NCBI GenBank assembly: GCA_963744715.1
Contig: CAVUUR010000010.1
Span: 10,291 to 74,290 of the forward strand
DNA length: 64,000 nt
From: an uncultured bacterium
GTDB lineage: Bacteria > Babelota > Babeliae > Babelales > JACPOV01
Direction: 5' to 3'
Below, piece after piece: positions 20,406-35,850 of this stretch; the first letter of the stretch is position 1; every line of letters starts with the position of its first letter. The notes below the pieces were generated by a model. That model ran no database searches and was not told the DNA's origin. It saw only the letters and a list, made by a program, of their open reading frames with translations. Made by a program: the position numbers and the translations under genes.

Positions 20406-21287
20406 TTATTCCTTTTCCAATTGTTTTAAATAATGGGCTACATAGGAATCCTTACGTGCTAATTGAGAAGGCGTTTTCCTATTTCTGTTCGTTATATTCA
20501 TTTTAATTTTTTGATCATGAAAATATTCTAATAATTTGCTCCGAGAGTATTTTGCTGCGATATGCATAATAGTATTTTGATCAGCATCTACATGTGTTGA
20601 CTCAAAAGTTTCGTTTGAAATATCGAAATGTTTATAAACTTGTATCATTGTTGTAAGAAGATAGAAGTTAGAAGAAAGTTTTTTGGAAAGATCTTGCAAA
20701 ATCTGTTGGTGTGAATAATTTTTATACTTCTTAATTAACGTATCGAAGGTTTCTTTTGATTCTCGTTCCCGTTCTGCTTCTTCCTGATCCTTTCGTGCTC
20801 GTTCGTTGAGTTCTTCTTCCCTGGTCTTAGCGATATAAAAAGCAGTAATGGGTTGTTTATCATATTGAGTTGTAGTTTTTTGTTTTTTTGAGACCTGTCC
20901 TGTAACGTTTGCAGATGGTTTAAAATCTTGACCAGATAACTGAGGCGCTTTAGTTTGAAATCTTTGAGTTTCTTTAGATGATGCTATTATAGGTGACGAC
21001 CTAATTGTATTGGTTATTATGGTAGAATTGGCAGAAACAGTTTGTTGTTCGGCAATCCGGGATGGTAGAAATGGATCTTGAAGTAATCTTTTTTCGTAGT
21101 TAATAAGCCATGCGGCGTTTTTTTGTGTGAATGCCGAAAAAGTATTTATTAAAGATGACATTTCAAGATCTGAAATAGATCCTGTTATCGGGAATTGTCT
21201 TTGGGTTTCGGAGAGTTGTTCCATGCTCAATAGTTGTAGAGGAAATATGAGGCTGATTAAACTATATTTTTTTATAGAAAATTTCAT
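20406..21287 (-). CDS. Secreted ankyrin-module protein, array member 1
   Basis: Leader MKFSIKKYSLISLIFPLQLLSMEQ; C-terminal DQNTIMHIAAKY...KTPSQLA. Confidence 0.85.
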   Translation of the reverse strand: MKFSIKKYSLISLIFPLQLLSMEQLSETQRQFPITGSISDLEMSSLINTFSAFTQKNAAWLINYEKRLLQDPFLPSRIAEQQTVSANSTIITNTIRSSPIIASSKETQRFQTKAPQLSGQDFKPSANVTGQVSKKQKTTTQYDKQPITAFYIAKTREEELNERARKDQEEAERERESKETFDTLIKKYKNYSHQQILQDLSKKLSSNFYLLTTMIQVYKHFDISNETFESTHVDADQNTIMHIAAKYSRSKLLEYFHDQKIKMNITNRNRKTPSQLARKDSYVAHYLKQLEKE

Positions 21288-21352
21288 GATATTTCTCTTG
21301 GGTAAAATTACTATTTATATTACGAAATTGTATATTAAGTAGTATGAAATTA

Positions 21353-21369
21353 TACAATAAAAAATTGTA
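21353..21369 (-). promoter_or_regulatory. TACAAT-N5-ATTGTA palindrome in promoter spacer (copy 1)
   Basis: Perfect arms. Sense strand TTTTAA-N17-TATAAT with the palindrome filling the spacer; 66 nt upstream of ATG 21287. Confidence 0.7.
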
Positions 21370-21402
21370 TATTAAAATTACTTTTTTTGGTTCGATATAT
21401 AC

Positions 21403-21449
21403 TTTCATTGCTATTCCTTACGTATGCCATTTAAAATAGCGAGTTTTTT
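21403..21449. repeat. 47-bp direct repeat, copy 2
   Basis: Copy of 20289-20335 with 6 transition mismatches, lying between array members 1 and 2. Confidence 0.85.
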
Positions 21450-22674
21450 ATGTAGGGTTTATGTGTTCCCAATCTTTTAAGTAGAGAGCCGTTAAAGAAC
21501 CGTCGGGAGCTAATTGACAAGGTGTTTGCCCGTCAGCGTTTTTTATACTTGTATTAATTTTTTTTGTTGTATGCAAATAGTCCAATAAATTTTTTTGTGA
21601 ATGTATCGCTGCTATATGAATAATAGTATTACCATTTTTGTCAAAAGGTATTGATTCGAGAGTTTCACTTGAGATATTAAATCTGTCACAAGCTCCTTGT
21701 ACTGCGTCGTTAAAAGATCCGTTGCCCATATGAGTTCCAGAAAACCTATTGATAATTCCTTGTAAAATTTCTTTGTGTGAAAGGAAGTTTTTTTCATAGG
21801 AGTTAAGAATTTTTTCTATGCATTCCGTATTTTTTCTTGATCGATCGTTTTTTTCACGTTTTTTTCTGGGGGTTCTTGTCTGTTTCTTTTCTGTTAGGTT
21901 ATCATGCGTTATTCCAATTGCTCCTGTTACTTGTGCTAAATATTTTTTAGTCTTTCCTGCCGTTTTGATCGTACATTGTTCAGCATAATTCAATGCATTT
22001 TTTCCGTTATCATCAGTTTCCAAAGGGTCGAAGTGATGAATATCAATTAAATATTGAACTGCTCTTAAAGCTCCTACCGAAGCTACTTGATGTAAAAGCG
22101 TTGAGTTGTTGTCAAAGCGAGCGTTAAGGTAAATGGCTGAGTCAGTTTTTCGCAGGAGTTCTATAACATACGGTGAACTTTTCCCGTACTTTGCATAGCC
22201 CGGTTGTAAAAGGGGTTTAACCCTTTTGATAAAATTGCGTGTGCCCTCAGATTGTGTTACGGTTCTATCGGTTACTATGTTAGAGTTAACAGAAATAGTT
22301 TGTGGTTCGGCGATCGGGAATGCTTGAAGTTGATAGGGCCGTTCTTGAGCGAAAATTTGTTGATGGTCTGTCATCATGATAGATTGTTCCGACTCCGTGT
22401 GATCTATCCGCTGCGGTGCAATAGAATTTAAAGTACTATTGTTATCTGAGTAATTTTTACTATTGAAATCTGTTTCATTGGGCATATCCGTATGGGGCTT
22501 CATGTTTATAACGGTTGATTGGCTTTCGGTGTAGTTAGTTTTCATCTGTCCCGTGAAGTTATAAAATTTTTGTATCAGAGATGACATTTGCTCATCCGAA
22601 TTTCGTTGCATGCTCAATAGTTGTAGAGGAAATATGAGGCCGATTAAACTATATTTTTTTATAGAAAATTTCAT
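21448..22674 (-). CDS. Secreted ankyrin-module protein, array member 2
   Basis: Start MKFSIKKY at 22674 (ORF track extends to 22722). ARFDNNSTLLHQVASVG...GKNALNYA and GNTIIHIAA...GQTPCQLA modules; internal PRKKREK. Confidence 0.85.
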   Translation of the reverse strand: MKFSIKKYSLIGLIFPLQLLSMQRNSDEQMSSLIQKFYNFTGQMKTNYTESQSTVINMKPHTDMPNETDFNSKNYSDNNSTLNSIAPQRIDHTESEQSIMMTDHQQIFAQERPYQLQAFPIAEPQTISVNSNIVTDRTVTQSEGTRNFIKRVKPLLQPGYAKYGKSSPYVIELLRKTDSAIYLNARFDNNSTLLHQVASVGALRAVQYLIDIHHFDPLETDDNGKNALNYAEQCTIKTAGKTKKYLAQVTGAIGITHDNLTEKKQTRTPRKKREKNDRSRKNTECIEKILNSYEKNFLSHKEILQGIINRFSGTHMGNGSFNDAVQGACDRFNISSETLESIPFDKNGNTIIHIAAIHSQKNLLDYLHTTKKINTSIKNADGQTPCQLAPDGSLTALYLKDWEHINPT

Positions 22675-34357: not shown

Positions 34358-35253
34358 AAATAGGCATTATTGGTCTGGGCAAAATGGGAAGCGCAATAGC
34401 ATATCGCTTATTGCAAGCAGGACATGAAGTAATTGGTTTTAATCAAGATCGGCAAGCAGCAGATATTGTTAAAAAAATGGGTGCTGAAATTGTTACATCG
34501 GTGCAAGAAGTTGCACAAAAAGCGCGGATTATTTGGCTTATGATTCCTGCGGGAGATCCGGTGGATGAAGTTCTTGAGCAATTACAGGGGAACTTACAAC
34601 GCGATGACATTATTATTGATGGAGGAAACAGCAAATTTACCGATTCGATACGGCGTGCAAATTATCTTAAAGGGTTCAACATTAATTTTCTTGATTGCGG
34701 AACCTCTGGTGGCTTACAGGGCAAAGAGATCGGTTTTTGCTTAATGGTTGGGGGCCAAAAAGGCGCTTATCTCACTATCGAACCATTATTGAAGGCAATT
34801 GCAGCACCGCGAGGATATGGGCATGTAGGGGTTTCAGGAGCAGGACACTACGTTAAAATGATACACAATGGTATTGAATACGCATTGTTGCAGAGTTATG
34901 CCGAAGGATTTCATTTATTAAAAGAAGGTCGTTATAAAGAATTAGATCTTGCTCACATTGCTGATATTTGGAACCATGGTTCGGTAATACGTTCATGGAT
35001 TTTAGAGCTTTCGTATACGATATTTAAGCATAATACAACCTTCAAAAATATTTCCGGAGAAATTGCTGAAAGTGGTACTGGAGCATGGACGGTGCAGGAA
35101 GCAAAAGAACAAAATATTCCAGTACCGTTGATTGAACATGCATTAGCTATCCGAGCATGGTCACGTGCTACGGGTGGTAATTATGCAACGAAAGTTGTTG
35201 CAATGTTACGCAATGCTTTCGGCGGACATGCGGTTACCAAGAAAAATACATAA
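34354..35253 (+). CDS. gnd: 6-phosphogluconate dehydrogenase, decarboxylating (short YqeC-type)
   Basis: GLGKMG, IDGGNS, GTSGG, GHYVKMIHNGIEY, RNAFGGH; ATGA overlap with zwf. Confidence 0.94.
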   Translation: MKIGIIGLGKMGSAIAYRLLQAGHEVIGFNQDRQAADIVKKMGAEIVTSVQEVAQKARIIWLMIPAGDPVDEVLEQLQGNLQRDDIIIDGGNSKFTDSIRRANYLKGFNINFLDCGTSGGLQGKEIGFCLMVGGQKGAYLTIEPLLKAIAAPRGYGHVGVSGAGHYVKMIHNGIEYALLQSYAEGFHLLKEGRYKELDLAHIADIWNHGSVIRSWILELSYTIFKHNTTFKNISGEIAESGTGAWTVQEAKEQNIPVPLIEHALAIRAWSRATGGNYATKVVAMLRNAFGGHAVTKKNT

Positions 35254-35310
35254 ATAACTATCTAGCAACAATTACAAAAAAATTTATCCCAGATAAATGT
35301 TCTTTCAATA

Positions 35311-35327
35311 TACAATACTTTATTGTA
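35311..35327 (+). promoter_or_regulatory. Palindrome copy 7 (TACAAT-ACTTT-ATTGTA)
   Basis: Perfect arms with a different spacer, in TTTCAA-N17-TAAACT context; 47 nt upstream of ATG 35374. Confidence 0.7.
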
Positions 35328-35373
35328 AACTTTTACGCGTTTAACGATAATTTTTTACAGAAAGAGCATTGTT

Positions 35374-35850
35374 ATGAAAGTATGTATAAAAAAATATAGT
35401 TTTATGTGTTTGCTATTTCCTCTGAGAGTACTGAGTATGGAGCAGCAGGATTTAGATTCGTATATGAAAAGGCTGATCACAGAATTTAATAACTTTAAGA
35501 ATACCGATGTTTATAAGCAAAAGTTACCATCGGATCAAAGACAAGGTATGGGTTGTGGCAATGAAGGCTATTCAGCCGATAATAATAATGTACGCAGTAC
35601 TGGTAAACGTGGGTCTGAATTTTTTATTGAACATACTGGGGATAAATCAGCTCAAAAAGGTATTTACGAACGATTGGATGAAGAGGGGAATACCATAATG
35701 CACATAGCAGCAATGCGTGGGCAAGAATCATTTTTAGGAAATCTTTGGCGAAACGGTGTTTCTATGGATATAAAAAATAGTAGTGGACAAACTCCTAATC
35801 AGTTATTGGAGATATTCAAGAAACAAAAAAATATCGTCGATTGCGAATAA
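35374..35850 (+). CDS. Secreted ankyrin-module protein, outlying member 9
   Basis: Leader MKVCIKKY...FPLRVLSMEQ; GNTIMHIAAMRG...GQTPNQLL. Confidence 0.82.
   Translation: MKVCIKKYSFMCLLFPLRVLSMEQQDLDSYMKRLITEFNNFKNTDVYKQKLPSDQRQGMGCGNEGYSADNNNVRSTGKRGSEFFIEHTGDKSAQKGIYERLDEEGNTIMHIAAMRGQESFLGNLWRNGVSMDIKNSSGQTPNQLLEIFKKQKNIVDCE

Follow-up and report, generated by a model that had tools for sequence, protein, structure and literature searches.

What could nine neighbouring ankyrin-type genes that share a leader, mostly share an upstream element and in part share a basic tail be doing for the bacterium that carries them? The genes lie in a 64,000-nt stretch of DNA (the window; C10:10291-74290) from an uncultured bacterium whose assembly is 1.26 Mb long, ~35% GC and 86% complete. 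By ftsI, the closest named relative is a TM6 metagenome-assembled genome (51% identity), and we infer the phylum Dependentiae for the source genome. The reading that we prefer, and consider fairly probable, is that the genes form a birth-and-death family of host-binding ankyrin effectors that would be exported by the Sec and type II pathways, would in about half of the cases be addressed to the host nucleus, and are probably co-expressed through an inherited promoter.

The family and its parts

An earlier note on this DNA had placed nine leader-bearing ankyrin genes in the window, and all nine are there: the minus strand carries eight (20406-31500) and the plus strand the ninth (35374-35850). 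The leader pattern written down in that note has exactly 9 matches among the 6512 stop-to-stop frames of at least 50 aa in the genome, all in this region. For three genes the longest open reading frame (ORF) begins further upstream, and the first Met of the leader lies at 22674, 26300 and 30109. A tenth paralog lies outside the window, on contig C6, and was first met through its upstream site in a matrix scan. The genes and their upstream blocks, which are predicted promoters, are listed below; A and B are two types of ankyrin module, and K/R stands for lysine or arginine.

20406..21287, minus: g1; leader, low-complexity linker, module B; no K/R run of four
21225..21287, minus: example of the leader (21 residues); basic N-terminal region (n-region), short hydrophobic region (h-region), Pro at -6, L/I/V at -3, S/C/G at -1, Met at +1
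21348..21377, minus: predicted promoter block of g1, 30 bp; palindrome 21353-21369
21448..22674, minus: g2; leader, linker, module A, internal RKKR, module B
22736..22765, minus: predicted promoter block of g2; palindrome 22741-22757
24421..25089, minus: g3; leader, acidic linker, module A, tail PTKKRKRN; no block of its own
25134..26300, minus: g4; leader, acidic linker, modules A and B, tail KKRK; no block of its own
26382..27167, minus: g5; leader, module A, PKKKRK and an acidic stretch near the C-terminus
27233..27262, minus: predicted promoter block of g5; palindrome 27238-27254
27408..28598, minus: g6; leader, three A-type modules, tail RKRKR
28674..28703, minus: predicted promoter block of g6; palindrome 28679-28695
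28712..30109, minus: g7; leader, three A-type modules (the first is the one folded below), long basic tail with KKKK end
30174..30203, minus: predicted promoter block of g7; palindrome 30179-30195, one mismatch
30414..30802, minus: frameshifted extra copy of module A, directly 3' of the g8 stop; 79.5% DNA identity to g8
30808..31500, minus: g8; leader, linker, module A; no K/R run of four
31569..31598, minus: predicted promoter block of g8; palindrome 31574-31590, one mismatch; lies between g8 and the divergent pgi
35303..35332, plus: predicted promoter block of g9; palindrome 35311-35327
35374..35850, plus: g9; leader, short linker, truncated ankyrin remnant
C6:137697-138707, plus (locus with block from 137608): tenth paralog, 336 aa; modules A and B, tail RKRKRI, diverged leader

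The leader is a selected protein segment. Over the nine genes its proportion of synonymous differences (pS) is 0.54 and its proportion of nonsynonymous differences (pN) 0.19; compared within one set of seven genes, the leader is 61% identical (pS 0.56, pN 0.19) and the module-A core 40% identical (pS 0.57, pN 0.40). Because pN is well below pS, the leader is translated and under purifying selection, and because its synonymous divergence equals that of the module-A core, recent wholesale conversion is disfavoured. This bears on a neutral explanation, in which recent duplication or gene conversion copied promoter and leader together and left similarity without function. The tandem arrangement, the truncated and frameshifted copies, and the nearly identical leaders of g1 and g2 (pS 0.00) are what such a process would leave behind. 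However, the synonymous sites of the leader are as diverged as those of the modules (0.56 and 0.57), and the flanks of the upstream block are near chance while the 30 bp themselves are almost invariant, even on the other contig. We regard the neutral explanation as largely refuted and highly improbable. Within the family, the leader is more tightly conserved than the ankyrin core. A leader tree gave no resolution, and leader swapping is not claimed.

By a heuristic check, all nine leaders have an n-region charge of +2 or +3, Pro at -6, L/I/V at -3, S/C/G at -1 and Met at +1, and the 21 residues are a predicted Sec-type signal peptide. A Met-first end (a small residue, then Met and E, D, Q or N, just past the h-region) also occurs in 102/561 signal-like proteins outside the family, compared with 9/561 at 40 residues further on and 11/321 proteins with no h-region, all of these classes being heuristic and drawn from purpose-made gene calls of the genome. 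Such ends presumably resemble the substrates of eukaryotic NatB. Since the Met-first end is genome-wide and the leader of the C6 paralog has diverged, the leader is not a dedicated export code of the family. Hence, of the common export signal proposed in the earlier note, the conserved signal-peptide anatomy stands (9/9) but the exclusiveness does not.

The ankyrin assignment holds for most of the genes. Six window genes pass a Pfam ankyrin gathering cut-off (g3 barely), as does the C6 paralog, but g1, g5 and g9 fall below it (E values 0.009, 0.002 and 0.001); genome-wide, Ank_2 has 56 matches. A tree of 17 modules splits types A and B with 99/98 support, and the two types can be aligned over the ankyrin core only (58 columns, probability 93%). 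Both types occur together in g2, g4 and the C6 paralog, B in g1, A in g3, g5 and g8, and three A-type modules in each of g6 and g7. The body of g9, a short remnant, matches the family (module B included; E 3.6e-9) no better than it matches generic ankyrins (1e-9), and g9 therefore counts as a member by its leader and predicted promoter. The AlphaFold check suggested in the earlier note gave an ankyrin fold: from a 24-row alignment of 10 family modules and 14 order-level ankyrin segments, module A was modelled as a compact three-repeat domain with a predicted local distance difference test score (pLDDT) of 94.5, aligned over its full length to ankyrin domains. The top structural match is the three-repeat ankyrin domain of glutaminase (PDB 5u0k; Z 12.8, root-mean-square deviation 2.7, 97/109 aligned), but many other ankyrin domains and designed ankyrin repeat proteins score within 1 Z unit of it, so that the match speaks for the fold only, not for a function. 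Viral structural matches are weak generic ankyrins. A single-sequence AlphaFold model of g4 was set aside (pLDDT 35.6). The C-termini of the family are short and of low complexity, and a Pfam search at E 0.05 found no catalytic, F-box or PRANC domain among the nine window genes. The modules look like binding modules, and because catalytic and F-box domains were not detected we propose a role in binding or scaffolding host proteins.

The basic tails are the most distinctive feature of the family. The earlier note had seen tails resembling a nuclear localisation signal (NLS) in most genes; they are present and family-specific, but in about half of the genes. A run of at least four K/R within the last 15 residues occurs in 4/9 window genes, or five if the g5 end PNRKRT is counted. 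With the C6 paralog included, terminal runs are found in 5/10 family members but in only 10/882 other soluble proteins, 0/102 other proteins with the Met-first end and 0/36 other proteins with ankyrin motifs. Runs of four anywhere in the protein occur in 7/10 family members and 56/882 other soluble proteins, g2 and g5 having internal ones; PKKKRK in g5 resembles the SV40 NLS. Five family tails match a classical monopartite NLS pattern, as do 28/882 background proteins. Because the members are kin, the tails represent one to a few evolutionary events, yet they are kept at the ends of C-termini that otherwise cannot be aligned.

The block upstream of the genes

As the earlier note had described, a palindrome TA[C/T]AA-N7-TTGTA lies 63-97 nt upstream of 7/9 window genes, with its 5+5 arms perfect in five and with one mismatch in two; g4 and g3 are the two genes that have none. 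The palindrome sits inside a 30-bp block that is found upstream of 8/10 family genes and of no other gene. For a matrix trained on six array sites, the next sites are those of the C6 paralog (33.0 bits) and g9 (23.5 bits), and the best other site scores 16.4. Across four lineages the block is almost invariant, varying in the middle three -10 bases, which are the least conserved, and at a few spacer positions. Its flanks are 17-67% identical. The spacer has a mean identity of 88% (minimum 76%, 28 pairs), with synonymous sites near saturation.

What is the block? Expectation maximisation over 659 upstream regions, with the sigma70 consensus as its seed, gave the promoter model TTGACA-16/18-TATACT for the genome; the family block reads TTT[T/C]AA-16/17-TAnnnT and has the best sigma70 -10 element in 7/8 regions and the second-best in that of the C6 paralog. 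A generic promoter scan stayed at chance level (77 vs 69.5 +/- 9). The upstream element is selected and family-private, and is most simply the family's own sigma70 promoter. Thus, the shared promoter of the earlier note survives as a family-restricted block under selection, but its palindrome coincides with a predicted sigma70 promoter inherited with the genes. Because eight copies share this predicted promoter, co-expression of the family is probable. The sequence also suggests that g5, g4 and g3 form one operon with g3 last, since g4 and g3 have no block and start close behind the previous family gene (81 nt and 44 nt, respectively). A shared promoter alone could account for joint timing; in Chlamydia, supercoiling acts on midcycle promoters and Euo represses late ones (PMC12282069).

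Does the palindrome also serve as an operator? If a dedicated operator were the main driver of the family, a dimeric regulator would bind TACAA-N7-TTGTA in the spacer and gate the genes at one stage of infection. The 88% identity of the spacer would fit such a regulon, given that orthologous 17-bp spacers of a conserved XRE gene have a mean identity of 51% (8 sequences; 79% among the five closest). Furthermore, the left arm TA[C/T]AA corresponds in this register to no part of a sigma70 promoter, a full set of five arm pairs is seen in just 6/600 best promoters (family sites counted), and the C6 paralog keeps the block despite the divergence of its leader. However, the conservation is directional and not symmetric, with inner positions 5-7 variable and 8-11 fixed, and the C-to-T change in the g7 and g8 arms is uncompensated. 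The matrix scan of the genome gave no well-scoring site outside the family. In 40 relatives, the loose palindrome pattern has 132 matches compared with 144 for the control, which is no enrichment, and the strict pattern occurs in 0/9 same-family genomes. Moreover, 7/37 non-family paralog pairs below 45% identity agree at 25-30 of the 30 bases upstream, where random pairs reach at most 21, although these seven pairs are younger (30-41% vs 40-55% changed codons at identical residues) and some of their matches may be mis-called coding DNA.

The search for a regulator covered ten families, among them sigma70, with TetR, Fur, LysR, Crp and others outside it, and gave one match for sigma70, three for HTH_3 and two for MerR. 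For MarR, GntR, ArgR, ArsR-type, AsnC-type, BlaI and response regulators (HTH_24 and HTH_20 included) the genome, which is 86% complete, gave no match. Since seven other paralog families also retain upstream DNA, and neither a regulator nor an outside target was found, an operator is not proven. We think it unlikely that a dedicated operator is the main driver; as an addition outside our core claim, an operator on the palindrome is possible, although we lean somewhat against it.

Several other roles for the block were considered and rejected. MerR targets have a promoter spacer longer than 16-17 bp; the family spacer is 16-17 bp, and neither MerR gene has the motif upstream. ArgR was dropped as regulator of the palindrome with its absence from the genome searches. 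A role as an RNA hairpin is unlikely, with predicted energies of -1.0 to -5.5 kcal/mol and a position upstream of the predicted start, and Rfam gave 0 matches in window positions 20000-36300. Co-option of the block from the pgi promoter was also discarded, no such block being present upstream of pgi in the relatives inspected (8 loci fetched).

An XRE helix-turn-helix plus S24-like protein is encoded at C6:192781-193455 (minus strand), frameshifted here, and is matched in 41/41 genomes searched. Identity to the best matches is mostly 60-91%; the recognition helix is near-invariant, the catalytic serine is apparently replaced, judging from the alignment, and the promoter, TTTCCATTTGACA-16/17-TACAATTAGAA, is conserved. 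This protein is a candidate phylum-wide master regulator. Its upstream footprint is a plain sigma70 promoter without the palindrome motif, which counts against a dedicated operator regulon; autoregulation of the XRE-S24 gene through the motif was rejected on the same observation.

A proposed route to the host

How might such a family work? A gene with the layout leader-A-B-basic tail is the simplest ancestor to propose, since g4 and the C6 paralog keep this layout in full and both modules are also present in g2. Copies would then have lost or doubled modules. RNA polymerase would read TTT[T/C]AA-16/17-TAnnnT, reaching g4 and g3 by readthrough from g5. Signal peptidase I would cleave after residue 21, leaving a Met-Glu/Gln/Asp/His end, and the folded protein would leave through the secretin channel. 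In the host, importin would recognise the K/R cluster, and the three-repeat ankyrin modules would bind host proteins and then sequester or scaffold them. Of the type II machinery, the genome has two secretins, two GspF loci, GspC and a PilM-like gene, a set that matches the type II system with two gspD genes encoded by TM6 genomes (PMC4776705).

Several points weigh against this route. The h-region is short (best 8-mer hydropathy 2.05-3.2), and the leader of the C6 paralog, although it keeps the Met at position 22, is only 10-25% identical to the others and has Leu at -1. Three of the ten genes (g1, g8 and g9) have no K/R run of four at all, the P value of the tail enrichment (1.6e-7) overstates independence because the family members are kin, and binding to nucleic acid or membranes is another possible role of basic tails. 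The passage of a type II substrate over the vacuole membrane is left without explanation, and our survey of secretion systems was confined to type II. Finally, the block scores 7.5-9.3 as a promoter compared with a genome median of 8.9, with a weak -35 element, under a model that is consensus-seeded and whose training regions include these.

Could the proteins be exported but not nuclear? They might act in the vacuole lumen, at the bacterial surface or in the host cytosol, with the tails binding membranes, RNA or partners. Half of the members lack a tail and ankyrin modules bind many kinds of target, both of which would suit such a role, and the route of type II substrates over the inclusion membrane is unsettled even in Chlamydia (PMC6717882). 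On the other hand, the tails are short, terminal and made of K/R only, five of them fit the monopartite pattern, and the two comparison sets nearest to the family, of 102 Met-first and 36 ankyrin proteins, have none. Hence, we judge a wholly non-nuclear role to be quite unlikely, and return to the nucleus-addressed family with its precedents.

Chlamydia trachomatis CT311 reportedly has an NLS, as we know from the title of a cited paper. CT311 is Sec-dependent, probably type II-secreted and reported in the host nucleus, and so gives a precedent by analogy for a Sec/type II substrate that reaches the nucleus; in contrast to our family, it is a single protein that the accessible text does not describe as an ankyrin, and the likeness is one of route only, with no homology claimed (PMC6717882). 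Anaplasma AnkA and Legionella AnkH are likewise nuclear ankyrin effectors, acting on DNA or the transcription machinery, and AnkH is also important in amoebae; they differ in being type IV substrates without an identifiable NLS, and shared-promoter tandem arrays are not described for them in the sections at hand (PMC7819608). The Ank1 and Ank6 groups of Orientia tsutsugamushi belong to a large paralogous ankyrin repertoire with members in host nuclei, but these proteins use type I secretion and nearly all have a terminal F-box/PRANC, whereas here there is a Sec-type leader and no F-box match (PMC7819608).

Much of this is already known within the phylum. Dependentiae are widespread parasites of protists, as their isolates are, with up to 126 ankyrin proteins each to which, in the accessible parts of these reports, no specific function is assigned (PMC4378268, PMC6561590). 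In Babela massiliensis, type II is the only secretion system detected and 79/126 ankyrin proteins have signal peptides (PMC4378268); in Chromulinavorax destructans, 78% of 98 ankyrin proteins have them (PMC6561590). Both resemble the present case in their signal-peptide ankyrins, lineage expansions, islands, likely type II exit and ~1.2 Mb genomes, but nuclear tails, a family-private promoter and discrete three-repeat modules are not described in those parts (PMC4378268, PMC6561590). The literature searched, with most subscription papers and the Babela supplements on expanded families outside its scope, yielded no NLS-tagged Dependentiae ankyrin family and no family-private promoter. The earlier note's view that the combination is undescribed thus holds for that literature, but secreted ankyrin islands and family expansions in the phylum had already been described (PMC4378268, PMC6561590). 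From its sequence, the family is best read as a variant of these known islands with a birth-and-death history.

A bolder version would make this the first nucleus-targeted Dependentiae effector family, a stage-specific regulon in which a dimeric regulator (possibly the XRE-S24 protein) would control a private promoter, and whose products, type II-secreted three-repeat binders with cleaved Met-Glu/Gln/Asp ends that would mimic N-acetylation substrates of the host, would enter the protist nucleus and reprogram it; we consider this improbable. The family nevertheless offers a small and sharp test set, in which the same leader and promoter occur with and without a nuclear tag. Two questions become testable with it: do type II-secreted Dependentiae proteins enter the nucleus of the host, and by what means are effectors timed in a bacterium that has very few regulators and a single detected sigma factor? 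Its reach is limited by an uncultured organism and by a family seen in one genome so far.

Family history and the surrounding genome

Is the family peculiar to this lineage? In the genome profile searches, at most 16-18 candidates per genome were scored, and every statement of absence from relatives is bounded by this. Within the genome, module profiles add the C6 paralog to the nine leader matches, with own-genome scores that are inflated because these modules are training rows. Among the candidates scored, there are no orthologs in 260 order-level relatives, and the module A and B profiles found none in the 9 same-family genomes. Over 261 order-level genomes, the best outside matches have E values of 1.8e-13 (A) and 1e-9 (B); the best of them has a different leader, and there is no such array in the 3.3 kb fetched around it. 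A search of 40 relatives with g6 gave generic ankyrin matches only (best E 1.2e-6), protein databases gave only the genome's own copies and generic ankyrins, and the ESM Atlas gave generic ankyrin clusters only. In a profile search of 1.84 billion representatives, long generic ankyrin proteins crowded the results, which therefore say nothing about orthologs. With the tandem array and the C6 paralog, these results agree with the lineage-specific expansion by duplication that the earlier note proposed.

In the same-family genomes, neither the DNA upstream of ftsL (7 loci) nor that next to pgi (8 loci) has such an array. Lineage-specific secreted ORFs are frequent at both places in relatives, upstream of ftsL-ftsI as well as around pgi-zwf-gnd, so that the array occupies ordinary plasticity slots. 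Two unrelated orphan ORFs interrupt the array, at 22863-23849 and 23920-24267; the former has a signal peptide with the Met-first end, and both are without a promoter block or a significant Pfam match.

Some of the assembly appears to contain errors. Frameshift-split genes that read as valS, groEL, ftsZ and rpoD (window 4136-6587, 44358-46005 and 58599-59799, and C2:139288-140310) suggest indel errors in parts of it; by tblastn, 1/13 conserved genes is split. Since several essential genes are also split, the frameshift in the extra module at 30414..30802 could mark a duplicate in decay or be an indel artefact of the assembly. At the contig end (window 61356-63745), ftsQ-like and rRNA-methylase-like pieces are duplicated and frameshifted, possibly as an assembly repeat.

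Other secreted families are also arranged in tandem. Window positions 11091-13872 hold a pair of related secreted proteins of 460 and 455 aa, and further tandem families with conserved leaders are at C2:40152-50816, C12:56621-60557, C12:69777-74127, C12:229102-231536 and C6:108260-111129. In the first of these (C2:40152-50816), two gene types alternate, and most copies of the six-member type have a common TTGACA...TATAGAT promoter.

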